Positions 1 through 15,961 of a DNA stretch of 64,000 nt are shown in pieces. Position 1 is the stretch's first letter; each line of letters opens with the position of its first letter. The notes under the pieces are model-generated. The model did not search any database and was not told the DNA's origin. It saw only the letters and a list, made by a program, of their open reading frames with translations. Origin of the DNA: Arcobacter sp. LC1. GTDB taxonomy: Bacteria; Campylobacterota; Campylobacteria; Campylobacterales; Arcobacteraceae. A program made the position numbers and the translations under genes. The stretch is taken from positions 3,627-67,626 of the forward strand of contig JAACJU010000010.1 of the NCBI GenBank assembly GCA_021378565.1. The letters are read 5' to 3'.

Positions 1-243
1 AAAGCTAGTTTTGTAAAGTAATTTTCTTAGCTGTTTATAGATTAAAGTCTGGGAACTCACAATGTTTTTTAAAATATTAATATTATTTTTTCTAGGATTT
101 AAGCTAAAAATTTTATTTAGCTCATAACCATTATGGCATTTTACCCTAGTGAAGAATGAAACATCAACATACAAATTTTTTATTTTTTTTTTATTTGCTC
201 TATAAAGAGCATATTGAAACATTTGGTTTCCCAAACCTCCCAT
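1..243 (-). CDS. glycosyltransferase family 11 (alpha-1,2-fucosyltransferase-like), N-terminal 81 codons; the gene continues past the left window edge
   Basis: Cut by the window edge, so absent from the ORF track. Reverse translation from ATG 243..241 reads MGGLGNQMFQYALYRANKKKIKNLYVDVSFFTRVKCHNGYELNKIFSLNPRK... with no stop down to base 1. GGLGNQMFQYA is the hallmark N-terminal motif of GT11 fucosyltransferases. Confidence 0.8.
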   Translation of the reverse strand, partial: MGGLGNQMFQYALYRANKKKIKNLYVDVSFFTRVKCHNGYELNKIFSLNPRKNNINILKNIVSSQTLIYKQLRKLLYKTSF

Positions 244-1341
244 GATAGCGATAATTTTAATTGATAATCCTTTTAAAATTATAATACAGAAAAATTACTT
301 AAAAATAGTTTTATATAGATATTGTTTTAAGATACTAAAATATTTATCTCTATTTTGCCTTGTTTACGCCTTAATAATTTGCCTATCTATTGGTAGTCAT
401 AAAAATATTAAAATCATTATCAACTTGATATTATTAGTATTAATCCATCCGTGCAGATAATGAACCGCCTTCTGGGACACTTAGAAACACTATAAAATCT
501 CACATTCTTAGAACATAGCTAAATATTTTATTTTCAATATCTATAAATCCATAAACAATAGTATTTAATTTATTTAGTTCATTTCTATATTAATTTAAAA
601 TAATGTTCATTGGATATATTGTCGCATATGTGCAAATTTATATATTTAATATATAGCAAAACATCCAAGCAATGATTCTAGTCCATTATTTATTAGATAT
701 ACAACTAAAAAAAAATTTAGAGCCTTTTGACTATTTTTATATTATTCATAGCATCTGGAATTTTACAAACAGTCCTGATACAAAAAACATTTACTTATAA
801 TTATTTTCTATAAATGTTTATAAATACATTTTTTACAAAGAGATTATAATATCCAATAATATCAAATTGATTAGTCTATGCTTTTTGTATATCTTAATAA
901 TTTTTTAGGTGCATATATTTTATTGTAAACAGCTCTTACTCTTCTTAGAATTTTATTATTTTGAAAGCATACATACATTCTCATTATACAAAAATATTCT
1001 TTTATGCAAGTGCACTTTATTTTTAAGGTAATCTTAAATATATTATCAGCTATGCTAGATATTAAATAACATTTTAGATTCTCATATTGCAGCAAATTTT
1101 GTAACGAATAGCGTCTATATTATTTTTTGTTTTTCAAGCATAGTCAATATCAGTTAAAGCATATAAAAAAATATTTAAATCTTTTCGAAATGTCACCGTA
1201 ATTTATAATAGTAGAACTACTACAACTAAAACATCTATAATAGAAAAAATGATTCCAAAGAATCTATTGTCATTTTAAAATATCTAAAACTATTTCTAGA
1301 AAGAGTAGCTATTGATAGTTTTTATTCATCTTTTATACTTC

Positions 1342-2790
1342 TTAAGTACCTTGATATAAAGTATATTGTTTTTTATTGTATTCAAATACTGCTTTATTTT
1401 GTTTGACAATAAATGCATTTTGATTTTCAATATATTCATTAATTTTACTAGGCAATTTTTTTGGACTATCTAAATATTCAAATTCTAACTCTGCATAATC
1501 TGTCATAAAACTTCTACGATTAGTAAAATTAATTATTAAGCCTAGTTTTCCTTTTTTTAAACAATCTATAAAGGCATTAGAATACTCACTTAAAAATAGG
1601 TCATTCTCTTTTATATCTTTATCTAATGTATTGTTTGAAATAGTTAAATTTTTCAATTTTAGGAATTTAACATATTGCTCAATTCTTTTTATTGAATTAA
1701 TCCCTTCATGGGAGGGATGTACCATTGCTGGATGTGTTCTTATTGTAAATCTCAAATAAGGAAATTTTTTTGCAAGATTAGCGAATTCTCTTACACTAAT
1801 ATCTGTGTCACTTCTATTAATTAAAGATGACCAATCTCCAGCATGACCAAGAATTAACAAAATATCGTTAATTTTTTTAAAAGAAGTTTCAATCATTAAC
1901 TCATCTTTTGATAGAGGTAATTTACTCAATATTTTTAATCCAAACTTTTCAAACCATTTTTTATCTATAAAGTCCTTAACTACAAATACACAATTTTTAC
2001 TAAATATATCAAGATATGTCCTTGGCATATTACTAGGATTATTACCATCGATAAAGATATAATGCTTTTTATTTAAACTTAATAAGATATTTGAGACTCT
2101 CTTATTGTAATTATGAATAGTACTGGCAAAATAATCTACTTTCAGTGAGCCTAATTTAAGTAAAAGTGAAAATAAAAAATAATTATATACACGCTTTGTT
2201 CTTATTGCATCATTTTTAATTTTTAACCTATTTGCATCTACAGTAAATAAATATTTCTTTTTATCATAGATAATGTGTTCTACATAAATTTTCCTAGTTA
2301 TTTTGCTTAATATCTTTTTAAATATATTAGATAAAAAATTATGATAAACTATTTTAGAATTTACAGAAGATAAATTTATAAATTCTGACTGCCAAACTTC
2401 GCTTGCTATGCCTAGTCCTTTTAGACAATGTGTATTATAAATTTTGTTTTTTGCTAATACTCTTTTTCTAACTATTATATTTTTATATAGCATACTTTTA
2501 TTCATAAATTTTAAAACATCAAAAGTGTGGATATTAAAAGTATTGCTAGAATTGATGTCGCATAACTCCATTTCCTTATCATCAATATAATCGCTAAATA
2601 TCTTAAACTCTATTATTTTATAATTTATATTAATTTTTATATATTCTATTTCATTATCAAATAATAAGCAAGTTGATAAAATAAGAATAGTATTGTATTT
2701 TTTAAAGTTTATATCTTCGCATAAGCTTTTTAAATCAACATTTTGATTTAAAACATACAGTACATTAAATTCATTATTTAATTGTCTCAT
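1342..2790 (-). CDS. hypothetical glycan-biosynthesis protein, possibly a GT-B type (capsule/nonulosonate-type) transferase
   Basis: 482-aa ORF whose start overlaps the upstream gene stop by 4 nt (ATGA). The C-terminal half contains LILGHAGDWSS...IRTHPAMVHP, which resembles the xHP motif of KpsS/KpsC-type and bacterial sialyltransferase-like enzymes. Function is tentative. Confidence 0.45.
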   Translation of the reverse strand: MRQLNNEFNVLYVLNQNVDLKSLCEDINFKKYNTILILSTCLLFDNEIEYIKININYKIIEFKIFSDYIDDKEMELCDINSSNTFNIHTFDVLKFMNKSMLYKNIIVRKRVLAKNKIYNTHCLKGLGIASEVWQSEFINLSSVNSKIVYHNFLSNIFKKILSKITRKIYVEHIIYDKKKYLFTVDANRLKIKNDAIRTKRVYNYFLFSLLLKLGSLKVDYFASTIHNYNKRVSNILLSLNKKHYIFIDGNNPSNMPRTYLDIFSKNCVFVVKDFIDKKWFEKFGLKILSKLPLSKDELMIETSFKKINDILLILGHAGDWSSLINRSDTDISVREFANLAKKFPYLRFTIRTHPAMVHPSHEGINSIKRIEQYVKFLKLKNLTISNNTLDKDIKENDLFLSEYSNAFIDCLKKGKLGLIINFTNRRSFMTDYAELEFEYLDSPKKLPSKINEYIENQNAFIVKQNKAVFEYNKKQYTLYQGT

Positions 2791-3497
2791 TTATAATCTT
2801 TTAACCATTTCTCAGTCCTTTTAATATCATCAAATGTGTGTACATCAAAGCATGCATCTACGAAAATAGGTTTAATATTGTTTCCTAAAAAAGTCCATGG
2901 TTTTTGTCCATTTTTAGAATAAAGTGAATTTTTCATATTCAGTACCCAAAAATTATGTCCTAAAAAATAACAAGCTTCTAATTCTTGCCTATTAGTAGAG
3001 ATTTCCTTATCGGCGAAATCAAAAAAAGCTTCTAAACTACCCTCTTTATTAAGCCTTTTTGCCCTATATGGATGATGATCTTGCTCCTGATAAACAGGAA
3101 CTTCAGCAGAAATTGAACTGTCATTTAAAATATCATTTATTCCTTTTTCAATCCATTCACTTTTTACGGTTGCTGAATTTGCTAAAAAAACAATTAAAAT
3201 ATCAGGTGTAATATTATCATTCTTTTTCATATATTCAACTGCATGAAAAATTGCGTCAATATGCCTTGCAGTCGATGAGGATAATACTTCTGGCCTTTTA
3301 ATCTTTTTAAACCCTAATTTATAAGTTATATCTAAAATCTTATCATCATCACTGCTAACATAAAAATGTGTGATTAGAGAAGTATTTTTGGCTACATTCG
3401 CAGGATAGCTTATCAAGGGTTTTCCTAATATAGGTAAAATATTTTTATTTTTTAAAGTATTATTTCCTCTTCCTGTCAATAATGCTACAATATTCAT
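2787..3497 (-). CDS. CMP-nonulosonate synthetase (acylneuraminate cytidylyltransferase family; NeuA/PseF/LegF-like)
   Basis: The N-terminus MNIVALLTGRGNNTLKNKNILPILGKPLISY fits the cytidylyltransferase P-loop pattern (ARxGSKxxxxKN...GKPLI). It sits in a nonulosonic acid locus. Confidence 0.75.
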   Translation of the reverse strand: MNIVALLTGRGNNTLKNKNILPILGKPLISYPANVAKNTSLITHFYVSSDDDKILDITYKLGFKKIKRPEVLSSSTARHIDAIFHAVEYMKKNDNITPDILIVFLANSATVKSEWIEKGINDILNDSSISAEVPVYQEQDHHPYRAKRLNKEGSLEAFFDFADKEISTNRQELEACYFLGHNFWVLNMKNSLYSKNGQKPWTFLGNNIKPIFVDACFDVHTFDDIKRTEKWLKDYK

Positions 3498-4429
3498 AAT
3501 AATACTTCTTTTGCATATTTATACATTGTTTTCATTCCATCTGATAAAGAAATTTTAGCAGTCCAGCCTAATAATTCTATTTTTGAAGAGTCCGAAATAG
3601 ACCCAAATTGATCCCCTTCATGTGAGCCAATATTTTCTATAAAAAAATCACTTTCTTCTTTATCGTTTATTTCTAAAATCAGTTTTATTAATTCCCTCAC
3701 TTTAGTAGCAGTTCCTGAACCAACATTAAAAATTTCAGAATCAGTTTTATTATCTAAACCCAATATTAGAGCATCAACAACATCATCAATATATATAAAA
3801 TCTCTATATCTCTCAAAAGAACCTGTAACAGAAATTTTGTTAGACAATATAGATTGAGCCATGAATATGCTTGCCATTCCTTGTTTCATATTTAGCATGT
3901 TTTGCCCTGGTCCATAAACATTAAAGAGCCTAAATATTGTATTTTTTATTCCATACTGCTTAAACATATTTAAATAATATTCTCCAGCAACTTTTGAAAC
4001 CCCATAGTTTGACAATGGGGATAACAAATCTTCTTCTTTTATTTTCCCTTCCTTATTTCCATATGTCGCCATAGAAGAAGAGAATATTATTTTTTTAGCG
4101 GAACACTTTCTTGCAAAATTACAAATATTCAATGTTCCTTTGATATTTGTGTCTATATCAAGATATGGTTTAACTTGTGATATAGCCCCTGATGTCTGAG
4201 CTGCGAGATGGTAAATTAAATCAAATCTCCCCCCCCCCCCCTTTTTTTTTATAATATCAAAATTTTTATATTCTCTAATATCTAATATATACTTTTCGCA
4301 TTCTAACTCAGAAGAAGCTATACGATCAGCAAGATCTATTATAGTTACACAATGACCATTTGTCTGCAATTTATTTGCTAAAGCAGTTCCAATAAAACCT
4401 GCTCCACCTGTGATTAGAATATTAGACAC
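3494..4429 (-). CDS. NAD-dependent epimerase/dehydratase (extended SDR) carrying an in-frame poly-G tract
   Basis: Rossmann motif MSNILITGGAGFIGTALANKL and catalytic YxxxK (NYGVSKVAGEYY). The ORF is intact across the A9G13 tract, which encodes KKKGGGGR. Confidence 0.85.
   Translation of the reverse strand: MSNILITGGAGFIGTALANKLQTNGHCVTIIDLADRIASSELECEKYILDIREYKNFDIIKKKGGGGRFDLIYHLAAQTSGAISQVKPYLDIDTNIKGTLNICNFARKCSAKKIIFSSSMATYGNKEGKIKEEDLLSPLSNYGVSKVAGEYYLNMFKQYGIKNTIFRLFNVYGPGQNMLNMKQGMASIFMAQSILSNKISVTGSFERYRDFIYIDDVVDALILGLDNKTDSEIFNVGSGTATKVRELIKLILEINDKEESDFFIENIGSHEGDQFGSISDSSKIELLGWTAKISLSDGMKTMYKYAKEVLL
4229..4250 (-). repeat. homopolymer: 13 C (4229-4241) then 9 T (4242-4250) on the plus strand, which is A9G13 in the sense strand of the epimerase gene
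   Basis: Counted directly from the sequence ...tcaaatct CCCCCCCCCCCCC TTTTTTTTT ataat... Confidence 0.97.
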
Positions 4430-5069
4430 ATAAATTCCTTTTAAAATATATTGAAATTAAATCGCTTGCAATATTATGGTCATGAACATCTTTAATTTCT
4501 ATGGATTCAAAATAATCAGTCTCATATAGCAAAGGTTCAGAGCCAACCATACTATTTGTTTTAATAATTTCATTCTTATTAATTATGAAAATTCCATTAG
4601 TTATTATATATATTGGCTCAATATCTTTTCGTGATACAAAATCATTAGAAAAATTTAATTTAGATTTTTTATAAAAAACATACTCTTTTCTTTTTTCTAC
4701 TGAAATAATTGATGATTTACCAGACTCAAGAAGTTTACTCCACATCTTTTCATATATATTACTACCTATAAAAGGAGACATTGAATTTGCCCAAAGGATA
4801 AATTCTGAATTAATATCCTTTACAGTATTTAATACCTTTTCCATATATGGCATATTTTTTTTTGTCTCATGAAAATTAACATTCTCTTTTAAAGCTATTT
4901 TTTTTATTGTTTGACTACTAGAACTAATATAAATATTAGTATTATCAATAAATTCTTTACACTGAGCTATCTTCCATTGTAATAATGTAGTATCACCAAA
5001 TGGAGCCAAGTCGCCAGAATAATGGTACTGATTAAAATCCTGAGCTGGTATAATAACTACTATTTTCAT
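4422..5069 (-). CDS. second cytidylyltransferase-like protein (CTP_transf_3-like fold, divergent)
   Basis: MKIVVIIPAQDFNQYHYSGDLAPFGDTTLLQWKI resembles the N-terminal nucleotide-binding strand and loop of sugar cytidylyltransferases. Overlaps the downstream gene by 8 nt. Confidence 0.5.
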   Translation of the reverse strand: MKIVVIIPAQDFNQYHYSGDLAPFGDTTLLQWKIAQCKEFIDNTNIYISSSSQTIKKIALKENVNFHETKKNMPYMEKVLNTVKDINSEFILWANSMSPFIGSNIYEKMWSKLLESGKSSIISVEKRKEYVFYKKSKLNFSNDFVSRKDIEPIYIITNGIFIINKNEIIKTNSMVGSEPLLYETDYFESIEIKDVHDHNIASDLISIYFKRNLCV

Positions 5070-5839
5070 AGTATTCTCCTTCTTAATTCTGGAAGTCTTT
5101 TAACTTCATTTTTAATCTGTAAAACACCAAACTCCCTTTTTGACAATATATATAATTCTTCAAACTTCAATGATTCTTTTAGCGCTTGAGCATTTTTAAA
5201 AAATATTTTTGTTGGTAAAATAATTTTTCTAGTTTCCATCTTATATATAATTTCTTTTAAACTTGGATAATTTTTGTTTATTATATTTAGTGTCTTACAC
5301 GATATACTCCCACCGACTGTGAAAGTCAAGTTAGAATCATTTACTTTTTTTCCAATTTTTTGAAGAAGTTCAAAAGTAAAGCTACTGTCTGGTTTAATAT
5401 TATCATTAAAATATGAAGCAGTTAGGTCAGATCTTCCGATGGTTATATTATTAAATTTATCTATTGCGAATTCAAGTATTTCATCTATTGATTTAATAGA
5501 ATTTTTAGTTTCTATATTTAAAGTTGAATGAATTTTATGCCTTCCGTAAACTTTTTTCAATGAATCAAAAAATTTTTTTGCACCAAATTTACTTTCAACC
5601 ATTGGAGCTATAATACCATCAACACCAATTTCTAGTGCGTCATTTATATCTCTTATGGCCTCGACACCGCCTATTTTTAAATATAATTTAATTCCAGCCT
5701 GTAAGGTTAGTCTTCTTAATCTCGTTAAATCACGAAAAGAAGAACCTTCAGCCTCAAACTCTGCTTTAATTCCTTGCAATTTATACTCATCACGAAGAAT
5801 ACAAAGTTGTTCATAAAGTTTTTTTTCAATTCCAAACAT
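5066..5839 (-). CDS. HpcH/HpaI-type aldolase/lyase-like TIM-barrel protein (tentative)
   Basis: GVDGIIAPMVESKFGAKKF resembles the PMVE(S/T) motif of the HpcH/HpaI/citrate-lyase-beta family. 4-nt overlap with the downstream gene. Confidence 0.4.
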   Translation of the reverse strand: MFGIEKKLYEQLCILRDEYKLQGIKAEFEAEGSSFRDLTRLRRLTLQAGIKLYLKIGGVEAIRDINDALEIGVDGIIAPMVESKFGAKKFFDSLKKVYGRHKIHSTLNIETKNSIKSIDEILEFAIDKFNNITIGRSDLTASYFNDNIKPDSSFTFELLQKIGKKVNDSNLTFTVGGSISCKTLNIINKNYPSLKEIIYKMETRKIILPTKIFFKNAQALKESLKFEELYILSKREFGVLQIKNEVKRLPELRRRIL

Positions 5840-6540
5840 ATTTATCCTAATCTAGATTCTTTATATCTTAACTTATATTTTTTATTTTCATAATATAACT
5901 TATTATATCATTTTTGCTTTTAAATTTTTAAAATTATCTAGTACCCTCAACACAGAAGCCTAAAAATTAGTGTTGCACTTCCAAGTTGAATGGGCAGTAT
6001 TAAACAATCTTGACTAAATCATCGGGGAGGGGTGAATTGTGTCAGCCTTTTAAAATATCTTGAAGCTATCAAAAAGCTTGATTTTACCGCAAATCCTATG
6101 AAATCTTAAATTCTACGATCAAAAAGAAAGACTAAAACTAAAGGCACATTTGCTAAATAGAATCTTCTTTTAAAATTATGTATTTATCAACTCAGGACTT
6201 CAAAATAAATGGAAAAACTTAAGTTAAGAAATTGGCCTGAAATTTATCCCGAACTTTCATATTTTTCAGCGAAATTATGGAAAAATATACAAAGTAGATG
6301 AAAGATGTTGGTGGGTTTACACAGTTTAGTTTATAGTCTCTTTAAAACTCATTCTCAAGTGAGGTTAAACCTATAAAATTTTTTCTTGTATTTGGAAAAT
6401 TTATATGCTAATTCTTCTAAATTTAATATTGCTGAAGTCTAAATTCTTTAAATTATTTACTAGATATTATTCTATCCAATAATTTAGGTTTCAAGGTTTA
6501 CAATTTATTTTTATGGTCTCTAAGAGGGATAAATTATTTT

Positions 6541-7611
6541 TTAATAGTTTGTTATCAACATATCACAAAAATCTAATTTTCCTATCTCCATTATAATACT
6601 TGAATAAGTTAATCCTGCTCCAAAACCAGCTAGCATACAATTGTAAGTCTTTTTTGTAATATCGTTATGAACATTATGGCAAATACATACTGGTATAGTC
6701 GAACTATTAGAATTACCATAATATGTAACAACATTGCTAGGAACTTTATTTTTAGCCACACCTAATTTTTGAGATAATTTATCCACCATAAATTTATTTG
6801 GCTGATGAAAGAAATAGTAATCTAAATCATCTTTATTTATTTTTGCAAATTCTAATGTTTCATTGATATATTTAGGTATATCTTGCATAACGTATTGAAA
6901 AACAGCCTGCCCATCCATATGAACACTTTTTATATTTTTATTAAATCCATATTTAGAAGAGGAATATTTTTCAATCTCTTCTTGAGAATTATCTCTAAAT
7001 CCTAAGGCAGGAAATATGAGGGCATCATATTTTGAAGAATCAATAATTGTATGCAAAAAAATAGGAAGATTTTTTTCACAATTTTCAACAACAGTTATTG
7101 TAATCGCATCACCCGATAATGGATAACCACTAGTATTGCTTCTGTCTGGATTTTTCGCAAGCACATCACCTGTAATTAATATAACTTTATTCATATTATC
7201 ATTATTTAAAAGCATAAAGGCTTGCAATAAGCCATTAGCATAACCAGCACATTGCTGATTTGTATCCATACAAAAAACACTATTATCTAAATCTAAATTT
7301 GACATAATAAGATTTGACGTTCCAGGCATTAAAAAGTCTGGAGTAGTTGATGATAAAATAATAGCAGAAATATCTTCTTTTTCTAAAATATGATTATCAA
7401 ACATATATCTAAGCCCAAATGTAGCTATTTTTGAAACATAACTATCACTTTTGAAAAGACGATGTTTTTCATAACCCATAGTTTTTTGAAGTTTTCTATT
7501 TTGTTTCTCTGAAAGATTGTTAAGCTTCATATCATCTTCAAAATTATATTCTGTTTCAGGCAAAAGAGACAATATACTTGTTATCTTCTTTCCATAAAAT
7601 GTAGTTTTCAT
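6541..7611 (-). CDS. 3-oxoacyl-ACP synthase III (FabH-like KAS III), copy 1
   Basis: Cys-His-Asn triad contexts: NQQCAGYANGLLQA, FFHQPNKFMVDKL, YGNSNSSTIP. Confidence 0.8.
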   Translation of the reverse strand: MKTTFYGKKITSILSLLPETEYNFEDDMKLNNLSEKQNRKLQKTMGYEKHRLFKSDSYVSKIATFGLRYMFDNHILEKEDISAIILSSTTPDFLMPGTSNLIMSNLDLDNSVFCMDTNQQCAGYANGLLQAFMLLNNDNMNKVILITGDVLAKNPDRSNTSGYPLSGDAITITVVENCEKNLPIFLHTIIDSSKYDALIFPALGFRDNSQEEIEKYSSSKYGFNKNIKSVHMDGQAVFQYVMQDIPKYINETLEFAKINKDDLDYYFFHQPNKFMVDKLSQKLGVAKNKVPSNVVTYYGNSNSSTIPVCICHNVHNDITKKTYNCMLAGFGAGLTYSSIIMEIGKLDFCDMLITNY

Positions 7612-7833
7612 ATCTTTTCTCCAGCTATTTTATCTTTATATGCACAAAATAAGCCATTCTAACCCTTTTTTGCTAATTTGATTTTTTAGTAATTTTTTAT
7701 TACTAATACTTATTTAATGTAACACTTAAAATTCTTAATATATAATTTGCCAATAAGATTATCTATCTAATCAATTGTTTTATTATAAAATAAAAAAATA
7801 TTTTTATATTTTCTATTTTTAATTTAAAATATG

Positions 7834-8064
7834 TTAAACAGTACCACCACTTTTAACTATTAATTTTTTTATTCTTTCTATGCTCGAAAAATTTTCAGGA
7901 AGAATATCTTCACCATTAATTACAATATTAAATTTTTCTTCAAATTCTGTTACTAATGTAATAACATCAAAGCTATCAAGCATACCTTCATCTATAAAAT
8001 CTATATCATTTAAAAAATCATATTCTGGTCTTGTATCGATTAGTATTTTTCTTATTTTCTCCAC
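7834..8064 (-). CDS. carrier protein (DltC-like / acyl or aminoacyl carrier)
   Basis: 76 aa with the phosphopantetheine-serine context FIDEGMLDSFDVITLV. Lies directly downstream of the adenylating enzyme. Confidence 0.75.
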   Translation of the reverse strand: MEKIRKILIDTRPEYDFLNDIDFIDEGMLDSFDVITLVTEFEEKFNIVINGEDILPENFSSIERIKKLIVKSGGTV

Positions 8065-8075
8065 TATTGTTTCCT

Positions 8076-9602
8076 TTATCTATACTTAGATTTGAGTAAA
8101 ATTTTATCAATTTTCCCATTATGATTTAATGGCAAATTATCAATTTTATGATATTTAGTTGGCACCATATACTTAGGTAAAATATTCATTAATGATAATT
8201 TTATTTGTTTATCTATATCGTCTATGTTTTTAGAAGTATAAATAAGTATTATTTTTCTTTTAATATCATCATAAAAACTTATACAGTCATCTACATCATT
8301 TAATGATATAGCAGCAGTTTCTATCTCCCCTAATTCTATTCTATAACCTAAATGTTTTATTTGATTATCTTTTCTTCCACAGAAAATCAAAAGTCCTTCA
8401 TCATCATACATTGCTAAATCACCTGTGCGATAAATAATATCTGGATAATCATTATGCAATGGATTTTGAACAAAAACTTCTTTTGTTTTCTTTGCATTTT
8501 TGTAATAACCTGGAGAAATACTTGTTCCCAAAACACACATTTCTCCAATTTTATCTTTATCTTTTATTAAATCATCTTTTTCATCTAAAATAAGTATTCT
8601 TTTATTTTCAATACTTTTTCCTATCGGCAATGATTCTTTTTCGGTATACTCTTTGTCCACAATATAATATGTTGAATTAACAGTCCCTTCTGTGAAACCA
8701 TAAAGATTAGCAATAAAATTAAGTTTTGGGAGTTTATTTTTTATATAATTAAGATGTTTTACGGGCATAACTTCACCCCCAAACATAATAGTCTTTATTT
8801 TATCTAATACTATTTTATCAAGAGCTTTAAAATTGGATAAACTAATAAGCGCAGAAGGAACCCAAAACAAAAAATTAACATTATTTTTTTTTATAAATTC
8901 TACTACTTTGATTGGAAAAGCAAAAAGTTTTTCTGGGATAATTATCATTGTCGCACTTTGTTTAAGTGTTGCATAAACATCTTGTGTAGTAATATCAAAA
9001 TATAGTGCAGATTGGTTTCCAAAAATAGTTTTTTTATTAATAGGCAGTTTATTACAAGCCCAATCAATATAGTCAATAATATTTTTATGATTAATTGTCA
9101 CACCCTTGGGCACTCCTGTTGATCCTGAAGTAAAATATGTATACACAAGGTCTGTATCTACTGAATTTTTTTCATTAGATTTATAGGAATATATATCTTT
9201 TGAAAAGTCAATTAAATCATAACATATAATCTGTTCTTCTTTTATTCCTAAATCCAAAATCTTTTTTTTATTGTTTGAATTTGTTATCACAAGAGAAGGA
9301 GAAAGTGTTTTGATTAAACTTTGAATCTTTTTTTTTGGAAAATCTATACTAGTTGGAGTATAAAAATTTCCACTATAAACGATGCCAAGCATTGAAACAA
9401 TAGCTTCGATACTTTTTGGTAAAAAAACAAGGATAGCTTTATTTTGTGTATAAGATATTTTTTTAATTATTTCATTAGAAATAGCTAGTGCGAGATGTTT
9501 GCACTCAGCAAATGTTATTGATTTATTTTCATCAATAAATGCTATTTTATTTTTATTTTTTAAGCAACTATCTTCTAGATATTCTAAAACTGATTTATTC
9601 AA
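8076..9602 (-). CDS. AMP-dependent ligase, DltA-like (amino-acid or acid:carrier-protein ligase)
   Basis: Adenylation core motifs are present: YFTSGSTGVPKGV, FGGEVMP, YGFTEGT, YRTGDLA, GRKDNQIKHLGYRIELGEIE, NHNGKIDK. Confidence 0.85.
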   Translation of the reverse strand: MNKSVLEYLEDSCLKNKNKIAFIDENKSITFAECKHLALAISNEIIKKISYTQNKAILVFLPKSIEAIVSMLGIVYSGNFYTPTSIDFPKKKIQSLIKTLSPSLVITNSNNKKKILDLGIKEEQIICYDLIDFSKDIYSYKSNEKNSVDTDLVYTYFTSGSTGVPKGVTINHKNIIDYIDWACNKLPINKKTIFGNQSALYFDITTQDVYATLKQSATMIIIPEKLFAFPIKVVEFIKKNNVNFLFWVPSALISLSNFKALDKIVLDKIKTIMFGGEVMPVKHLNYIKNKLPKLNFIANLYGFTEGTVNSTYYIVDKEYTEKESLPIGKSIENKRILILDEKDDLIKDKDKIGEMCVLGTSISPGYYKNAKKTKEVFVQNPLHNDYPDIIYRTGDLAMYDDEGLLIFCGRKDNQIKHLGYRIELGEIETAAISLNDVDDCISFYDDIKRKIILIYTSKNIDDIDKQIKLSLMNILPKYMVPTKYHKIDNLPLNHNGKIDKILLKSKYR

Positions 9603-9611
9603 TTATAATCC

Positions 9612-10451
9612 TTATTTTATACTGTCAACATTACCATAAGTATAATTTTTCCCTAATTTAAAAGAGTCATATGGCCTTGCTAATAATATATTAATATCTT
9701 TTTTAAAATATTCTAATGTTTCTTCAAATGCACTTTTGCCTTTAATAATCATTATTTCTTTTTCGCCTAAAGTAATTCTTTTCAAAATATTCTTACTTTC
9801 TAAAATATTTTGAAATCCAATATCAACACTTGGAATAACAGTATCGTATAGGGTAAAAAGATTATATGTTTCTTCTGTGATTATATCACCATTAATAATT
9901 TTACCTGTAAACTCTTTTTCATACCGGTAAGGCACATTAGCAATAGCTTCAACATAATGCAAAAAGGTAAAACATTCAGTGGGTTTTGCACCAAAAAATA
10001 AAAACATATTATCGTCACTTTCTGATAGTATCTCAAAAGAACTTCCTTTTCCACAAGATAATTTGGATAGATTATTAAATTTTTCAGGTACTTCGCCTAC
10101 AACACATACGGAAAGTAACGGATCTATAGTTCTAAAAGTGCCTTCTTTTTTTCTTACATATTCATTTAATACCCCCATTCTGGTTTTTGAATTTTTAATA
10201 TCATAATACTTATTATTACAAAAACTAAAAGTATATGTTGGAAAGATAAGCGTTTTAACTTCTAAAGCCTTTATCGCTTCATACAATTTAGCAATAAAGT
10301 CTTTTCTTTTTAGCAAAGGTTTGCCAAAACCTATATCGGTATGAATATATAATATTTTTGCCTTATGTGCATTTAACTCTTTTAAGGATGATATTACATT
10401 TTCTAAAGTATAAATAATACCTTTTGTATCTTTAAATAGCTCTATCTTCAT
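9612..10451 (-). CDS. AAC(3)-fold (aminoglycoside 3-N-acetyltransferase family) acyltransferase
   Basis: KILYIHTDIGFGKP...VKTLIFPTYTF parallels the (L)LVHSSLS...GTLxMPT pattern of the Antibiotic_NAT family. The genomic context suggests a sugar N-acyltransferase. Confidence 0.55.
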   Translation of the reverse strand: MKIELFKDTKGIIYTLENVISSLKELNAHKAKILYIHTDIGFGKPLLKRKDFIAKLYEAIKALEVKTLIFPTYTFSFCNNKYYDIKNSKTRMGVLNEYVRKKEGTFRTIDPLLSVCVVGEVPEKFNNLSKLSCGKGSSFEILSESDDNMFLFFGAKPTECFTFLHYVEAIANVPYRYEKEFTGKIINGDIITEETYNLFTLYDTVIPSVDIGFQNILESKNILKRITLGEKEIMIIKGKSAFEETLEYFKKDINILLARPYDSFKLGKNYTYGNVDSIK

Positions 10452-11200
10452 TAAAATATTCCCCCATCTATATAATAACTTTCACCTATAATATATTTTG
10501 CACTATCACTCATTAAAAACATAACCATATTTGATACTTCTCTTGGGCTTAGGTTTTTAGACACAGAACTATCATCTATTTCTTCAGTATTAGGTTTTAA
10601 TAATTTATATTTTTCAGTATCTAATGACATCTTAGTTAAAACACTACCTACTAAAACACTGTTGATTCTTATTTTTCTTTTAAAAAGTTCAAGAGATAGC
10701 GTTTTAGACATACCTTCTCCTGCATTTTTACTAGCAATATATACTGCTTGCGCTTTTTTTGGCACTTTAGTTAGCATTGCAGAAAGATAGACTATAGAGG
10801 TATTATCATTTGAAAATGTTTTTTTACTTAAATGTTTTATGATTTCTAAATATGAATAGGTATTTACTTTCATTACTTTTTCAAAATTATTATAATTAAT
10901 AACTTTTAAGGGATAAATTCCGACATTTCCCGCGCAATGAACATATCCATTAAATTTCGTATCATCATAATCTAAAAGATTTTTAACTAAGTCAAATAAC
11001 CCATCTATATTTTCTAAATCATAAGACATATATCTATGTCCTTTTCCTTCCATAAGTGAGATTGTTTCTTTTAATCTTTCTTCATCTCTTGCAAGTAAAA
11101 CAACTTTTGCACCAAGTTCACTTAGATGAATGGATATTTCTCTTCCTATTCCTGAACTAGCACCAGTTACTAATATTTTTTTTCCTTCAAAAGAAATCAT
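10451..11200 (-). CDS. SDR-family oxidoreductase (FabG-like 3-oxoacyl reductase), copy 1
   Basis: KILVTGASSGIGREI (TGxxxGxG) and YIASKNAGEG (YxxxK). Confidence 0.8.
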   Translation of the reverse strand: MISFEGKKILVTGASSGIGREISIHLSELGAKVVLLARDEERLKETISLMEGKGHRYMSYDLENIDGLFDLVKNLLDYDDTKFNGYVHCAGNVGIYPLKVINYNNFEKVMKVNTYSYLEIIKHLSKKTFSNDNTSIVYLSAMLTKVPKKAQAVYIASKNAGEGMSKTLSLELFKRKIRINSVLVGSVLTKMSLDTEKYKLLKPNTEEIDDSSVSKNLSPREVSNMVMFLMSDSAKYIIGESYYIDGGIF

Positions 11201-11937
11201 GATAAATATCCTCTTACATCAAAGCACCTTCCATATACTCCACTTGAATATTCACTTAGTAAAAAAGCAACTTGCTCTGCAATATTTTCAGGGTCTATTG
11301 GGCCTGTTCTCATCTTATTTATTGTATCTTTTATTCCTGAAGATAAATCATCTTCATTTACATCTTCAGAAGATACAATCGCAGGACGAATTGCGTTTAC
11401 TCTTATTCCTTTAGAATAAAGTTCTTTTCCCATAACAATTATGCTACTATCAATCGCACCCTTGCTAGCAGAATACGCCAGTTGCCCTTTATCTCCATTA
11501 ATTGCAGCATAAGAAGATAAAACAACAATACTTCCTTTTCCCGAAATTTTCTTATTTGCGTAGCATCTTACCATCTCTGCAAAAGCATAATAATTTACAA
11601 GCATAATATCATGGAGAAAACTATAAGTTGTATTTTTTATTGGATGAATAGGAATAATGCCTGCACTATATACTAATCCTGCTAATTTTTGATTATCTAT
11701 TTCTAAAATAGATTTCATAAAATCCATAATCTTATCTACTTCTTTTACATCAAAAACCAATGAATAGTGTCCCTTGCCCTCAAGCTCACAAAGAGTCTCT
11801 TTAAGTTTTTTTTCATCTCTTCCGCTTATTACTACTTTTGCACCTAATTTACTTAGCTTAATAGCTATTTTTTTGCCTATATTACCACTAGCACCCATTA
11901 CAAGTATCTTTTTATTATTTAGCTCAAGCATTTGCAT
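11197..11937 (-). CDS. SDR-family oxidoreductase (FabG-like), copy 2
   Basis: KILVMGASGNIGKKI and YSASKGAIDS motifs. The ORF-track start at 11961 lies inside the upstream FabH gene. Internal ATGs at 11937 or 11931 (MQMLELNNKK...) give the usual short stop/start overlap. Confidence 0.75.
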   Translation of the reverse strand: MQMLELNNKKILVMGASGNIGKKIAIKLSKLGAKVVISGRDEKKLKETLCELEGKGHYSLVFDVKEVDKIMDFMKSILEIDNQKLAGLVYSAGIIPIHPIKNTTYSFLHDIMLVNYYAFAEMVRCYANKKISGKGSIVVLSSYAAINGDKGQLAYSASKGAIDSSIIVMGKELYSKGIRVNAIRPAIVSSEDVNEDDLSSGIKDTINKMRTGPIDPENIAEQVAFLLSEYSSGVYGRCFDVRGYLS

Positions 11938-12994
11938 TTTCCACTTTTGATCTACCTTCATCCCAAGTAATATCTGTAGAAATAATAGGAAAAATATCTT
12001 TTGGACTTACGAGTGCATCTGCAATACCTAACGATAATCCGATTCCAAAACCTGCCATAATCAATGAAACTTCTTTATCACTATTATTTTCTTTATAAAA
12101 ATCACACATAACATTTGGTATTGTTGCAGAAGATGTATTCCCATAAACGCCCAAAGAAAAAGGCACTTTATTTTTATCAGCTTTTATTTTTTTAATAATA
12201 ACATCAAGCATTGATTTATTTGCTTGGTGCAATAAAATTGCATCATAATTATCAATACTTAAATCAAATGATTTTAAAAAAGATTTAAATAATCTAGGTA
12301 CTTTTGTGATGCTAAATGTAAAAATAGCTAAGCCATCCATATGAATAGCAGGATCAAAGCTTGGATGTCCTGTATAAGCATACCTAAGTCCAGTAGTTGC
12401 ACCCAAAGCTTTAAATCCACTTCCGATAGTTCGCAAATCAAATCTAAAACCTGGCGCATTTTTTTCGTATTCGATTAATGTAGCAGAACCGCAGTCACCA
12501 AATAGCAAATCATTCAAAGTTGGTTTAGCACTTATACCATTCACAGTATCACCAACCAAAAGTAAAACTTTTTTCATAAATCCACTTTGCAATTTACTTG
12601 CAGCAAGTTGTAGTCCATAAACATAGCCTGAACAACCAAGATTTACATCATACGCCATGCAGTTTTCTGATAATCCTAGCCTATATTGCAAAGTGCCTGA
12701 AGTTGTAGGAGCGCCATAATCTGGTGTTTGAGAAATAAAGATTATTGCATCAATACTTTCTCTAATAATATTTTTTTTTCTAAAAATCTCTTCACTTGCT
12801 TCAAAGCATAAATCTGACGTCATTGTTTTTCTATTTTTACTATAAAACTTTTGATGTACACCTGCTTCTTTTACGAACCTCTGTATAGACTCTTTATTAA
12901 GATATTTATAAAAATCCTCTGCTGTTAATTTATCTTTGGGTACAGCGCAACAAACAGCTGAAATTTTTACATTTTTTATATGATCAATAGCCAT
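11924..12994 (-). CDS. 3-oxoacyl-ACP synthase III (FabH-like KAS III), copy 2
   Basis: DVNLGCSGYVYGLQLA, LLHQANKSMLD and YGNTSSATIP give the catalytic Cys/His/Asn contexts. Confidence 0.8.
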   Translation of the reverse strand: MAIDHIKNVKISAVCCAVPKDKLTAEDFYKYLNKESIQRFVKEAGVHQKFYSKNRKTMTSDLCFEASEEIFRKKNIIRESIDAIIFISQTPDYGAPTTSGTLQYRLGLSENCMAYDVNLGCSGYVYGLQLAASKLQSGFMKKVLLLVGDTVNGISAKPTLNDLLFGDCGSATLIEYEKNAPGFRFDLRTIGSGFKALGATTGLRYAYTGHPSFDPAIHMDGLAIFTFSITKVPRLFKSFLKSFDLSIDNYDAILLHQANKSMLDVIIKKIKADKNKVPFSLGVYGNTSSATIPNVMCDFYKENNSDKEVSLIMAGFGIGLSLGIADALVSPKDIFPIISTDITWDEGRSKVENANA

Positions 12995-12996
12995 CT

Positions 12997-13215
12997 TTAT
13001 TTCATTGTATTTAAAATATCTTGTACTGTTTTAAACTCTTTTATGTCTGCTGGATTGGCAATAACACCAAATTCTTCATCCATCATTACTACATATGATA
13101 TAGCAGCCAAAGAATCCCATTCTTCTAAATCATCAAGTACTGTTTCTTTTGTAAATTCATTTAATCCTAACTCAAAAAGTTCAGCTAATAATTCCATCTT
13201 TTTGTTTAAATCCAT
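12997..13215 (-). CDS. acyl carrier protein
   Basis: 72 aa, acidic, with the Ser context LEEWDSLAAISYV (DSL motif). Lies immediately upstream of FabH copy 2. Confidence 0.75.
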   Translation of the reverse strand: MDLNKKMELLAELFELGLNEFTKETVLDDLEEWDSLAAISYVVMMDEEFGVIANPADIKEFKTVQDILNTMK

Positions 13216-13528
13216 TTTATTGTCCTTAAAATATATACTGCTAATACTATCAAAATAAATATTAATAATTACTCAAGTTTATAGTTTTATGAGTTATTAG
13301 AACTAAAAAATATTAATCTTTAAGCTGATACATATATATTTACAAAAATCAAAATAATTTATAGCTGAATATAATTAAGTATAAATTCATCTGTAATATA
13401 TTTATCGCTTCTACTAAGCTTCAATAACATTATAATTTTTTAATATATAATGCTTAGCTATATTTATTATCCTACTATTTTATTTTTGCTAATAATTTTA
13501 TTATTTATTTTTTCATATTTTTTAAATT

Positions 13529-14902
13529 TCATTGTCTCAATATTAAGATATAGTTTTTAAGCCCATCTGCTTTGTATCCAACTCCTATATCAAGTTTTTT
13601 AGCTATTTTGTTGTCATCATCAATCCAAGCAGTACATCTTTTATTCTCAAGAGGCAAGCCAGAGATTAAGTAATATCCTATAGAACGACCTCTATAATCA
13701 GGATGAACACAAGTTAATCTCAAATAGTATGTATCTTTTGCTCCTTTTTTTTCATATATAGCTATGCCAGCTATTTCATTATCTTGCTTGATAATGAAAA
13801 TTTCTTCTTTTCCAATTAAAGTATTTAAATCAGAAATAGATGGTACATAATCAACTAAAACATCGAAAGTATTATCTATCATTTTTTTGATATCTTCAAT
13901 ATCTTGAACCTTAGCAAATTCAATTATTTCAAACTTCTTTGATTTCTTATCAGCACTATATCGCGAATAAACTTTATATGGTGAAAATCCTATGTTATTA
14001 TACAATGACTTGTCTAGACTTTTTCTAGAAGCAACTTCAAGAATAATAGTTTTTTTGTGCATTTGGAAAAAATCATTTAAATCATTTATTGCCTTATAAT
14101 CACTTAAAAAATAATAAAATCTATAAAATTCTTCTTCTTTTTTTAAAATAAAAATACTATTTTCTCTGACAAAAAAATAACAATTTTCAATAAGATTAAG
14201 AAAATCTTTATAATTAACGAAACAATTAGTATATTTGCATCTATTTTTAAATATTTTTATAGCTTGTTCTTTTGCATTTAATTTATCTTCTAATCTAAAA
14301 TTATTGTAATGTCCTGCAAAAACTTGAATTGAATCCTTAAGACTATTTAAATAAGGCATAGTGATATTTAAATAGTCTTTTTTCTTTGTCCCTGGACCTT
14401 TCAGCGAAGTCTCACAAGATTCAAATAAAGAATCACCTGCAAATAAAAAATCTTCTACTAAAATACAAGAACTTCCTGCTGAATGACCTGGTGTATGCTT
14501 AAAAAAGAACTTATACCCTTGCCAAAATAATTCATACGTATCATCAAATGTAATATTAGCAGGTTTAACTGTAATCTCACTTATTGGTGAGTTTAATTTT
14601 TTGTTCATAAAGTCAAGTATAATATTAGAAAATTTAGATAAATTTTTAGATGATGATTGAATATTTTCACTTGTAAATTTTTGACTTATTAATTGTGCAT
14701 CATATTTTAGTCTTAATTCATCAACTGCCATAATATGGTCAAAGTGTTCATGTGTTAATAAAATATAATCAAGCTTATCATTTCCTAGTGCTTTTAATAT
14801 TTCTTTATAATTGTTTGGATCAATAACGATAGCGTGATTATTGTGTTGTAAAACATAAGAATTTATGCCAATATCATTTTTATTGCAAGTTGTTATTTTC
14901 AC
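13529..14902 (-). CDS. fusion protein: N-terminal metallo-beta-lactamase-fold hydrolase + C-terminal GNAT N-acetyltransferase (PseH-like position)
   Basis: HxHxDH motif LLTHEHFDHI at the N-terminus. The C-terminal part has CVHPDYRGRSIGYYLI, a GNAT acetyl-CoA loop (R/Q-x-x-G-x-G/A type). Confidence 0.7.
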   Translation of the reverse strand: MKITTCNKNDIGINSYVLQHNNHAIVIDPNNYKEILKALGNDKLDYILLTHEHFDHIMAVDELRLKYDAQLISQKFTSENIQSSSKNLSKFSNIILDFMNKKLNSPISEITVKPANITFDDTYELFWQGYKFFFKHTPGHSAGSSCILVEDFLFAGDSLFESCETSLKGPGTKKKDYLNITMPYLNSLKDSIQVFAGHYNNFRLEDKLNAKEQAIKIFKNRCKYTNCFVNYKDFLNLIENCYFFVRENSIFILKKEEEFYRFYYFLSDYKAINDLNDFFQMHKKTIILEVASRKSLDKSLYNNIGFSPYKVYSRYSADKKSKKFEIIEFAKVQDIEDIKKMIDNTFDVLVDYVPSISDLNTLIGKEEIFIIKQDNEIAGIAIYEKKGAKDTYYLRLTCVHPDYRGRSIGYYLISGLPLENKRCTAWIDDDNKIAKKLDIGVGYKADGLKNYILILRQ

Positions 14903-14914
14903 AAGATTCCCTTT

Positions 14915-15961
14915 TTATTTAAAATGATTCCATTCTAATATTTCATTTTTGTTTATATTTTTTCTTAATTTCATTCCTAAAATTTTATCTCTATCAAAAG
15001 GAGAAATCCCATATCCAGGTCTTAACATCTCAATATCTTCTTTTTTTATAATATCACCGATTTTGAGTTTTTTATTAATATGAAGTGACCTTGTAGCCCA
15101 ATGTTTATCTAAAGATTCACAATCAGTTACTCTTTTTTTTGAATTACCATAAGCTGATTCTAGATTTCTTATTTCTGTAACAAGATTTTTCATATCATTA
15201 GGATCCATGCTAAACCAATGATCTGGCCCTTCTAAATTTTTATCAATAGTAAAATGCTTTTCTATTATTTTAGCACCAAGTCCAATAGCTCCAAGAGATG
15301 CTGTAATGCCCATAGAATGATCTGAAAAACCTATAACACAATCAGGATACATCTGTTTAAGAGTTTTAATAATATTTAAATTCATATTTTTTATCTCTGG
15401 AGGATAAATTGCAATACAATGCAATAAGCAAAGCTCTTTTGTGCCATTTTTTCTTAATAAATTTATGGCTAAATCTAAATCACCAATCGTAGATTTTCCA
15501 GTCGATAAAATAACTGGTTTTTTTGTTTGCCCTATCGCCTCTAACATATCAACATAATTCACATCAGATGAGGCTATTTTATAAATTGGGTTATCAAGTT
15601 TTTCCAAAAAACTAACACCATCTAAACTAAATGGAGTTGAAAAACAAATAAGATTTTTACTTTTTGCATAACCATAAATTTCTTGATGAAATTCTCTTTT
15701 TAATGTTACTTTATCAAACATTTCTTCAAGTGTTTCGCAGACCTCATTTCCTTTTTTGCCATATTTGATTAAGTCATTTTTATTTGATATTAATTCATCG
15801 CTAGTATAAGTTTGAAACTTGACAGCATCTACTCCACATTCGTAAGCAGCATCAATAGATTTTTTAGCTAATTCTAGATTACCATTGTGATTAGCTCCAA
15901 TTTCAGCAACAATAAAAGCAGGCATATTATCTGAAATTATTTTATTTCCTATTTTAAACAT
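14915..15961 (-). CDS. nonulosonic acid synthase (NeuB/PseI/LegI family; PseI-like by context)
   Basis: FIVAEIGANHNGNLELAKKSIDAAYECGVDAVKFQ is the NeuB-family N-terminal signature. The C-terminal segment is SAF-domain-like. Confidence 0.85.
   Translation of the reverse strand: MFKIGNKIISDNMPAFIVAEIGANHNGNLELAKKSIDAAYECGVDAVKFQTYTSDELISNKNDLIKYGKKGNEVCETLEEMFDKVTLKREFHQEIYGYAKSKNLICFSTPFSLDGVSFLEKLDNPIYKIASSDVNYVDMLEAIGQTKKPVILSTGKSTIGDLDLAINLLRKNGTKELCLLHCIAIYPPEIKNMNLNIIKTLKQMYPDCVIGFSDHSMGITASLGAIGLGAKIIEKHFTIDKNLEGPDHWFSMDPNDMKNLVTEIRNLESAYGNSKKRVTDCESLDKHWATRSLHINKKLKIGDIIKKEDIEMLRPGYGISPFDRDKILGMKLRKNINKNEILEWNHFK

Follow-up and report, generated by a model that had tools for sequence, protein, structure and literature searches.

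A conserved carrier-protein cassette in Arcobacter that may assemble hybrid N-acyl groups for amino sugars

A run of minus-strand genes in Arcobacter sp. LC1 (contig JAACJU010000010.1), lying within an analyzed stretch of 64,000 nucleotides that we call the window, encodes a conserved cassette that very probably builds an N-acyl group on carrier proteins for an amino sugar. The more specific account that we favor is a single hybrid assembly line, in which an amino acid would be loaded, capped, extended with malonyl units, reduced, and transferred, in that order; we put its probability at roughly 0.45. Taken to its chemical consequence, and held a little more tentatively, the cassette might be a free-standing hybrid of a nonribosomal peptide synthetase (NRPS) and a type II fatty acid synthase/polyketide synthase dedicated to glycan decoration, delivering statine-like gamma-(acyl)amino-beta-hydroxyacyl chains onto nonulosonic, bacillosamine-type, or 3-amino sugars. 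The parts are two carriers (the acyl carrier protein ACP1 and carrier protein 2, CP2), two ketosynthases of the ketoacyl-ACP synthase III (KAS III) type (FabH-1, or KS1, and FabH-2, or KS2), two short-chain dehydrogenase/reductases (SDR-A and SDR-B) as putative ketoreductases (KR-A and KR-B), a stand-alone adenylating ligase, a protein with the fold of the AAC(3) aminoglycoside acetyltransferases (here AAC3), and a metallo-beta-lactamase (MBL) fold hydrolase fused to a GNAT protein, X.

These families travel together. Scanning one genome per species with an AAC(3)-like alignment gave 80 loci, and 8 further loci brought the set to 88; open reading frames (ORFs) were called in them and classified by BLASTP against the window proteins, and complete-locus counts refer to 57 non-duplicate loci flanked on each side by 7 kb or more. 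The gene arrangement is far beyond chance, since ligase, CP2, a FabH-2-type KAS III, and an SDR all stand beside the AAC(3)-like gene in 54 of these 57 loci and the catalytic residues are invariant. At least 14 phyla are represented: Campylobacterota, Bacillota, Bacteroidota, Acidobacteriota, Verrucomicrobiota, Myxococcota, Spirochaetota, Actinomycetota, Desulfobacterota, Pseudomonadota, Cloacimonadota, Armatimonadota, Sumerlaeota, and Gastranaerophilales. The conserved core is the ligase, CP2, the FabH-2-type KAS III, an ACP, one SDR, and AAC3. FabH-1 and the second SDR are an optional add-on: FabH-1-type enzymes occur in 25 of the 57 loci, in 0–3 copies, with additional SDRs and ACPs accompanying them. 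Most commonly the genes are ordered ligase, X (a GNAT protein or a formyltransferase), CP2, KS2, ACP1, KR, AAC3, and, optionally, MBL. In 74 of 88 loci the gene immediately upstream of AAC3 encodes an SDR, and ACP1-KR-AAC3 forms a rigid block in loci other than that of the window. Judged by this pattern, the cassette appears ancient, horizontally mobile, and tightly co-inherited.

Orthologous cassettes are present in Campylobacter (C. concisus and C. pinnipediorum), and a plasmid record of Paenibacillus cellulosilyticus carries the cassette without annotation there. A mobile version occupies gut Clostridiales metagenome contigs (loci L003-L005 of our set, about positions 1-15600), which hold two divergently oriented copies of related KS/KR/ACP/ligase sets, one of them with an AAC(3)-like gene and a long KAS III of 558 residues; the island is bounded by integrases and a RelB/PIN pair. 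One cluster representative covers 26 member sequences from 159 contigs, and the protein is indexed in 389 collection blocks.

The co-inheritance of the core recasts how the locus is to be divided. The first-pass annotation had described a fatty-acid-synthase-like module and a D-alanylation-like module working in parallel, with FabH, ACP, and a ketoreductase as the minimal set for a 3-hydroxybutyryl thioester and FabH-2 as an appendix after a gap. Conservation of ligase, CP2, KS2, ACP, SDR, and AAC3 as one unit speaks against the first division, and the dispensability of FabH-1 and the second SDR against the minimal set. FabH-2 proves to be a core enzyme that keeps to the ligase's carrier: KS2 lies within 300 bp of CP2 in 71 of 79 cases and adjoins ACP1 in 19 of 79. 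In 30 loci KS2 keeps its place by CP2 with ACP1 lying apart; the opposite is seen in 1. Across the 57 complete loci, moreover, ligase, CP2, and KS2 are gained and lost together.

This linkage bears directly on a rival account, rather unlikely in our estimation, in which the two systems do operate side by side. KAS III, ACP1, and an SDR would make 3-hydroxybutanoyl-ACP from acetyl-CoA and malonyl-ACP (3,5-dihydroxyhexanoyl-ACP with FabH-1 and the second SDR), while the ligase would load CP2 separately; the products would go to two different sugar amines or be linked to one another in an N-(3-hydroxyacyl)-aminoacyl amide, with AAC3 and the GNAT protein as two N-acyltransferases. Groups of this kind do exist. 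Titles cited in PMC7685785 describe Qui4N bearing N-[(S)-3-hydroxybutanoyl]-D-alanyl in Escherichia coli O123 and Salmonella O58, and Pse5Ac7(3-hydroxybutanoyl) in E. coli O165, and a 3,5-dihydroxyhexanoyl group on Qui2NAc4N in Flavobacterium psychrophilum has been predicted to come from two KAS enzymes, an ACP, a ketoreductase, and a PglD-like transferase (PMC6519341). PglD- or PseH-like acyltransferases also adjoin the cassette in some loci, and the window itself encodes two acyltransferase families. Yet the preference of KS2 for CP2 over ACP1 and the shared fate of ligase, CP2, and KS2 are not what two independent systems would lead one to expect, and the F. psychrophilum module does without a ligase, a second carrier, and an AAC(3)-like gene. 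The supply of transferases is a further difficulty: over all loci, GNAT is missing from about 45%, and the formyltransferase found in 20 of 88 cannot move a 3-hydroxyacyl or aminoacyl group, so that many loci are left with a single candidate transferase. A blastn search of E. coli O-antigen clusters (O123, for example) with an Enterobacterales copy of the cassette, which compares at the nucleotide level only, gave no match. A single assembly line is the most economical reading because the core is inherited as a unit, KS2 is tied to the ligase's carrier, and the commonest gene order is colinear with the proposed reactions.

A second alternative, that housekeeping paralogs of FabH/ACP/FabG and DltA/DltC were grouped by chance with a resistance-type AAC(3), draws on the fact that the domain families are the same. 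It is effectively refuted by the synteny of the gene set across at least 14 phyla together with the profile scores, since every protein falls far below its NCBIfam equivalog cut-off. FabH models return 150-185 bits against cut-offs of 249-436, the FabG model TIGR01830 about 105-108 bits against 297.75, and ACP models 20-30 bits against 65-84; the best NCBIfam matches of KR-A are FabG-like, likewise below cut-off. On DltC models CP2 scores 21-30 against 52-68 (29.6 vs 68 on NF003464, 20.7 vs 52.35 on TIGR01688), and it matches best the cispentacin AmcB ACP model (34.9, with a cut-off of 80). The ligase reaches 257.7 of 559.85 on the DltA equivalog TIGR01734 and 280.7 of 476 on the DltA subfamily model NF003417, and AAC3 scores 38.9 bits on AAC_3 (NF033082), where 270 would mark a resistance-enzyme equivalog. 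The customary partners are missing as well: no dehydratase (FabZ/FabA) or enoyl reductase (FabI) domain is found among the 17 ORFs between 1342 and 16935, and the ORFs of the locus contain no FabF, DltB (MBOAT), or DltD domain. The D-alanylation identity originally given to the ligase and carrier, which fall short of the DltA and DltC cut-offs and have neither DltB nor DltD beside them, was not borne out. Nor does the locus encode a condensation (C) domain or a ketosynthase-chain length factor (KS-CLF) pair; the ketosynthase here is of the KAS III type.

What the first-pass annotation did establish is the physical arrangement. Its eight co-oriented genes were all found as ORFs at the coordinates and in the order it gave, on the minus strand, and the 222-bp gap is there. 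Gene identities and order were right, and the unit was drawn too small: the upstream MBL-GNAT fusion gene (14902-13529, minus) belongs as well, because both halves occur as separate cassette genes in other genomes. From ACP1 through CP2 the spacing is operon-like, ranging from a 38-bp overlap to an 11-bp gap; the true start of SDR-A is probably a few codons downstream of 11961. The cassette proteins are 64-81% identical to those of A. butzleri and A. cryaerophilus, in keeping with a window whose proteins are closest to Aliarcobacter and Arcobacter and whose DNA, which includes a ribosomal-protein operon, is AT-rich (about 27% G+C).

From the genes present, the order in which they stand, and the residues they conserve, the following sequence of reactions can be proposed. 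In the first, the ligase (9602-8076, minus; AMP-binding E 2e-55), a stand-alone enzyme of the NRPS A-domain/DltA-like kind, would adenylate a small amino acid and load it onto CP2 (8064-7834, minus; PP-binding E 2e-5), the carrier that serves as partner to both the ligase and KS2 and whose Ser31 is kept in 73/73 homologs. The ligase scores 295 bits on the amino-acid adenylation domain model TIGR01733, slightly below the cut-off of 317.4, and its best PDB matches are A domains of LgrA, headed by the Gly-activating module 2, and DltA. Asp203 is kept in 74/78 homologs and Lys497 in 76/78; from motif positions and a coordinate map, we take these to be the equivalents of GrsA Asp235 and Lys517, the residues that hold an amino-acid substrate by its amino and carboxylate groups. 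Together with the TIGR01733 score, their conservation argues for an amino acid substrate, and the bulky residues of the pocket suggest a small one.

The pocket itself varies between close relatives. Its code, extracted partly by what we take to be GrsA numbering, reads DIQFMGLVNK in the window, DISYFGFVIK in A. butzleri and A. cryaerophilus, DISFIGTVVK in C. concisus, and DIFFWALLDK or DILFFALVDK in most phyla. The window ligase is only 47% identical to that of A. butzleri (L006:5639-7147), where the other cassette proteins reach 64-81%, and it sits between AAC3 and CP2, a Firmicutes-type place that differs from A. butzleri in both position and orientation. Low identity, altered position and orientation, and different pocket residues together suggest that the ligase is a starter-selecting part swapped between close Arcobacter relatives, a pattern suggestive of strain-level surface diversification.

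In a second step, the free amine of the carrier-bound amino acid would be acetylated by the GNAT half of the fusion protein, with a formyltransferase, or nothing, taking its place in other genomes. The fusion comprises an MBL-fold hydrolase (residues 1-200; Lactamase_B E 2e-21) and an X of about 250 residues (211-457; GNAT E 2e-6). Elsewhere these are individual genes, MBL of 200-235 residues and X of about 270, the latter usually between the ligase and carrier 2; C. concisus also has the MBL-X fusion. A. butzleri has MBL alone and two X paralogs, one exactly where the window has its 222-bp, AT-rich gap between CP2 and KS2 (7833-7612). A. cryaerophilus likewise carries a second X gene at this position; in L006 and L007 the paralog between CP2 and KS2 has 275 residues. 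A tblastn search of the 222-bp, 313-bp, and 700-bp gaps of the window with all Arcobacter and Campylobacter locus ORFs detected no remnant of a second GNAT gene or any other gene, and promoter and terminator scans of the gaps performed no better than on shuffled AT-rich sequence.

The occupant of the X slot is itself variable. Of 20 X-slot proteins, 15 match GNAT models, while two that were picked by position alone match Formyl_trans_N instead; between ligase and carrier there is a GNAT protein in 20 loci, a Formyl_trans_N protein in 7, and nothing in 21. Such variability fits an optional capping of the amine. Butirosin and macrolactam biosynthesis offer precedents for N-protecting an amino starter.

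Chain extension would follow. The active-site cysteine of KS2 (7611-6541, minus; ACP_syn_III N and C domains) would take the starter from CP2 and condense it with malonyl-ACP1, the malonyl loading and the phosphopantetheinylation being left to housekeeping enzymes. ACP1 (13215-12997, minus; PP-binding E 5e-7), the proposed carrier of both malonyl and the growing chain, keeps the serine of its DSL motif (S35) in 72/72 homologs. KS2 has the full decarboxylating triad, Cys121/His269/Asn300, in 72/72 homologs, which counts in favor of a condensing role; KAS III-like acyltransferases usually lack the His or Asn of the triad. Its best PDB match is 4efi, a protein of unknown function. SDR-B (11200-10451, minus; adh_short_C2 E 4e-38) is the core ketoreductase and would reduce the 3-keto group; its Ser140/Tyr154/Lys158 are kept in at least 100 of 106 homologs, and both SDRs carry the classical YxxxK motif of ketoreductases.

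The window would go one round further. FabH-1 (12994-11924, minus; ACP_syn_III N and C domains), only 29.6% identical to FabH-2 and with its own triad (Cys121/His256/Asn286) kept in 48/49 homologs, and its paired reductase SDR-A (11961-11197, minus; adh_short E 4e-32, KR domain E 2e-12) would add and reduce another C2 unit, for a predicted 6-(acyl)amino-3,5-dihydroxyacyl-type chain. The hydroxyls should be retained because the locus has no dehydratase or enoyl reductase. Present in 0–3 sets from locus to locus, KS1, KR, and ACP behave like optional extension modules.

The final transfer, from ACP1 to a sugar amine, is assigned to AAC3 (10451-9612, minus; Antibiotic_NAT E 3.6e-21). An AF2 model of the protein (pLDDT 93) has the Antibiotic_NAT fold; Foldseek places it closest to AAC(3)-IVa, -Xa, and -IIIb, BA2930, YokD, and FrbF, at TM about 0.7 and 14-19% identity, with AAC(3)-IVa matched at E 8e-15 and TM 0.69-0.74. 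His37, His165, and Glu168 are invariant (84/84), the latter two aligning with the LHHAEH segment of AAC(3)-IIIb. That FrbF, a biosynthetic N-acetyltransferase, also belongs to this fold is in line with the assignment. As for the acceptor, the likeliest would be the 4-amino group of a UDP-4-amino-4,6-dideoxy-HexNAc, later N7 of a pseudaminic-acid-like nonulosonate: the window has no PseH homolog, so another enzyme must acylate that amine. Last, the MBL domain may serve as a thioesterase that clears mis-loaded carriers or releases the product, a role proposed because the family it matches best is that of glyoxalase II, which hydrolyzes thioesters (hydroxyacylglutathione hydrolase is the best NCBIfam match of the MBL-GNAT protein).

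In an all-against-all HMMER search, 43 clusters (at 50% identity) passed the threshold of E<=1e-30, and 913 passed that of E<=1e-10. More distantly related AAC(3)-like domains, with an example on the Erwinia rhapontici plasmid pERA53 (L092, 7965-10478), form part of HAD-IIIC (FkbH-like) or AMP-binding fusion proteins of 360-810 residues, next to SDR, ATP-grasp, aminotransferase, and MFS genes; these fusions are a further hint that this branch of the fold uses carrier- or adenylate-activated acyl groups. A block of an ACP-like protein of 69 residues, an SDR, and an AAC(3)-like protein, with no ligase, second carrier, or KAS III (L088:5529-10843), is directly downstream of genes for the large and small subunits of acetolactate synthase and a GT2 gene, in a rhamnose/glycosyltransferase (GT) locus; it may represent a simpler relative, one that reduces a group derived from a keto acid and passes it on.

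The sugar context of the cassette both supports its assignment to glycan biology and widens it. In the window, the cassette is preceded by a NeuB-family synthase gene (15961-14915, minus; NeuB Pfam E 7e-87) and a PseG-like gene (16935-15970, minus), and followed by genes that include a PseF-like one. As the first-pass annotation proposed, the locus is probably one for pseudaminic acid, in that nonulosonic-acid genes do flank the cassette; the assignment is weakened by scores below cut-off for the NeuB-family protein (PseI 320.7 vs 340.25, NeuB 345 vs 399.65), for the PseF-like protein (72.7 vs 205.7), and for the PseG-like protein (61.3 vs 153.55, PseG being the sole NCBIfam match for that ORF). 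No homolog of PseB, PseC, or PseH was detected in the 64-kb window by tblastn with L006 and L087 queries, and these genes may be encoded in another part of the genome; in A. butzleri the three are adjacent and accompanied by a Maf gene.

The other loci bring different sugars into play. In L087 and L090, genes for PseB, PseC, PseF, PseG, and PseH run into ligase, formyltransferase, carrier, KS2, ACP, KR, AAC3, and MBL and then PseI, so that the cassette is enclosed by a pseudaminic-acid operon. L089 has the same gene order as the window, after PglF/PglE/PglC/PglD-type genes and before glycosyltransferase genes, in a LytR-associated polysaccharide locus. In Lysinibacillus the cassette is flanked by DegT/PglD and FlaG-FliD-FliT-FliS, in Bacteroidales by two FdtA genes, a hexapeptide transferase, and DegT on one side and DegT, Bac_transf, Wzy, and GT genes on the other, while the Terriglobia and Cloacimonas cassettes accompany DegT, GT2, PMT_2, and GtrA. 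The earlier proposal that a carrier-built acyl group is moved to a sugar amine thus fits the surroundings, as with the placement between PseH and PseI; its restriction to pseudaminic and legionaminic acids (Pse/Leg) does not hold. Because it is found in Pse, bacillosamine-type, and FdtA/DegT-type 3-amino-sugar loci alike, the cassette appears to be a portable accessory of amino-sugar pathways in general.

These surroundings also bear on a third alternative, which we judge improbable: that the product is no sugar substituent at all but a small N-acyl amine, a metabolite of lactam or tetramic-acid type, or a modified lipid head group, the position in glycan loci reflecting co-regulation or mobility. 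A free gamma-amino-beta-keto thioester could, by chemical reasoning, self-cyclize, and fusions of distant AAC(3)-like domains with FkbH-like or AMP-binding proteins turn up in non-glycan contexts. Around the Clostridiales loci L003-L005 stand integrases and a toxin-antitoxin pair, and no sugar gene lies within 10 kb; over the complete loci, DegT is found within that distance in only 27 of 57 loci and NeuB in only 9 of 57, counts that are lower bounds, since BLAST was run with few queries. A non-glycan product is hard to reconcile with a cassette set inside a Pse operon in L087 and L090, between PglD and glycosyltransferases in L089, next to flagellar genes in Lysinibacillus, and between sugar and polymerization genes in Bacteroidales; it is possible for the Clostridiales islands and unlikely in the window.

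Several observations weigh against the single assembly line and its sugar acceptor. To our knowledge, a gamma-(acyl)amino-beta-hydroxyacyl group has not been reported on any bacterial glycan. The groups that are known, N-(3-hydroxybutanoyl)-alanyl and 3,5-dihydroxyhexanoyl, fit the parallel scheme (PMC7685785, PMC6519341). The window pocket code matches no code assignable with confidence, so the starter is not assignable from pocket residues. KS and KR counts are not always equal (Lysinibacillus has 3 KS and 2 KR), and the gut Clostridiales loci have the sugar-free surroundings just described. The PseH- or PglD-like acetyltransferase that several loci hold beside the cassette makes both the acceptor amine and the role of AAC3 as the sugar transferase uncertain. 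Finally, the X-slot formyltransferases match ArnA, Fmt, sugar formyltransferases, and the F domain of LgrA about equally, a likeness that would fit a sugar amine and an aminoacyl-carrier as substrate alike.

Beyond the cassette, the genes from 5839 down to 1342, all on the minus strand, include an HpcH-like gene, two CTP_transf_3 genes (one the PseF-like gene), an NAD epimerase/dehydratase gene, and U482. Between the cassette and the PseF-like gene, positions 2787-5839 hold the HpcH/HpaI aldolase-like gene, a very divergent second CTP_transf_3-like gene with no NCBIfam match, and the epimerase/dehydratase gene; this composition hints at a second activated-sugar pathway or further tailoring. 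The 700 bp between FabH-2 and the HpcH-like gene (5840-6540) have no ORF and are locally richer in G+C near 5960-6050, and an Rfam scan of 5700-6700 returned no match. Within the epimerase/dehydratase gene (4429-3494), a tract of thirteen G residues on the coding strand (C13 on the plus strand; 4229-4241) encodes ..KKKGGGGRFD... No other G/C homopolymer in the window reaches a length of 7, and the gene is in frame here. In appearance this is a slipped-strand phase-variation tract such as Campylobacter glycosylation loci are known to contain. U482, a protein of 482 residues (1342-2790, minus) with no Pfam or NCBIfam match and no record returned by exact-sequence look-ups, has 37 homologs, including proteins from Sulfurimonas, Cyclobacteriaceae, and Novispirillum, with invariant NHAGDW..RSDTD, R.HP, and SEYS motifs. 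Its AF2 model (pLDDT 90) has a divergent GT-B glycosyltransferase fold, at TM 0.3-0.5 to known glycosyltransferases, and U482 may be the transferase for the modified nonulosonate.

How bacteria make the N-acyl groups of nonulosonic acids and amino sugars is largely unknown, yet these groups set serotypes, phage and antibody epitopes, and flagellar function. The cassette offers a testable enzymatic route with swappable parts, namely ligase specificity, an acetyl or formyl cap, and 0–3 added rounds of ketosynthase and reductase, in organisms that span Arcobacter, Campylobacter, gut Firmicutes including Lachnospiraceae, Bacteroidota, and Acidobacteriota. Were the hybrid assembly line correct, its products would make up a new class of glycan substituents in bacteria, not yet seen by chemists, and the AAC(3) "resistance" fold would turn out to serve natively in biosynthesis, as a sugar N-acyltransferase that depends on acyl-ACP.

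Full-text searching found no description of the cassette, though most subscription journals lie outside such a search and an earlier characterization is possible. The closest precedent, compared by description, is wfpC-wfpG of F. psychrophilum, which encodes two 3-ketoacyl-ACP synthases, an ACP, a 3-ketoacyl-ACP reductase, and a PglD-like acyltransferase predicted to deliver 3,5-dihydroxyhexanoyl to UDP-Qui2NAc4N (PMC6519341). As in the cassette, a dedicated ACP, KAS, and KR without dehydratase or enoyl reductase stand in an amino-sugar locus, and both systems are proposed to build a hydroxylated N-acyl group and pass it from ACP to a 4-amino sugar nucleotide. Unlike the cassette, wfpC-G has no adenylating ligase, second carrier, GNAT/formyltransferase slot, or MBL, and its transferase is a left-handed beta-helix PglD homolog rather than an AAC(3)-fold protein.

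A similar logic of KAS III, two or three carriers, and an amino-acid-type adenylating enzyme is apparent in the Pse/Leg flagellin glycosylation locus of Campylobacter jejuni NCTC 11168, where we take Cj1299-Cj1308 to be annotated as acpP2, fabH2, acpP3, an "amino acid activating enzyme", and an ACP. That region presumably has neither an AAC(3)-like gene nor an SDR pair, and no C. jejuni protein is among the best 120 homologs of the AAC(3)-like protein or FabH-2, all of which are at least about 36-40% identical. The papers that mention these genes appear, by their titles and abstracts, to be genomic, transcriptomic, or essentiality studies. Related too are the Vibrio cholerae O1 rfbKLMNO-type module and the ACP/FabG/AMP-ligase/LuxE/LuxC sets of Aeromonas group II and enterobacterial flagellin glycosylation islands (PMC7874193, PMC4875605). 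They share a carrier, an AMP-ligase, and an SDR with the cassette, again in Pse or O-antigen loci, and are thought to supply an unusual acyl group; they differ in having a LuxC/LuxE-type reductase and synthetase and neither KAS III nor an AAC(3)-fold transferase, and their authors suggest a "liposugar" without giving its chemistry. Shewanella sfmABCDE and the Aeromonas and enterobacterial Lux-type sets, considered as instances of the same cassette, turned out to be different systems.

Chemically, the butirosin side chain is a further point of reference. It is made by BtrI (an ACP), BtrJ, BtrK, BtrO/V, BtrH, and BtrG. As we understand that pathway, it likewise builds a hydroxy-amino-acyl chain from an amino acid on a stand-alone ACP, protects its nitrogen, and transfers it to an aminoglycoside amine; it differs in using an ATP-grasp ligase, a PLP decarboxylase, a monooxygenase, and the transferase BtrH, with no ketosynthase, and in having an antibiotic rather than a sugar nucleotide as acceptor. 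With DltA/DltC the cassette shares a stand-alone adenylating enzyme of the same superfamily branch and a small dedicated carrier encoded directly downstream, but its scores are well below the cut-offs, it has no DltB/DltD, a ketosynthase instead of a membrane acyltransferase follows the carrier, and its pockets vary among close relatives. AAC3 likewise shares its fold and the His/Glu of the AAC(3)-IIIb motif with the AAC(3) enzymes and FrbF, a group whose known members N-acylate amino-sugar-like amines; it differs from them in its low identity, in being always embedded with ACP, KR, and KS genes, and in a predicted acyl-ACP rather than acetyl-CoA donor. On the product side, the flagellin nonulosonate of Treponema denticola is reported to carry a 2-methoxy-4,5,6-trihydroxyhexanoyl group, so polyketide-like N-acyl chains on such sugars exist. 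Set beside these systems, the cassette is real, conserved, and uncharacterized, a new variation on the already known theme of carrier-built acyl substituents on bacterial amino sugars.

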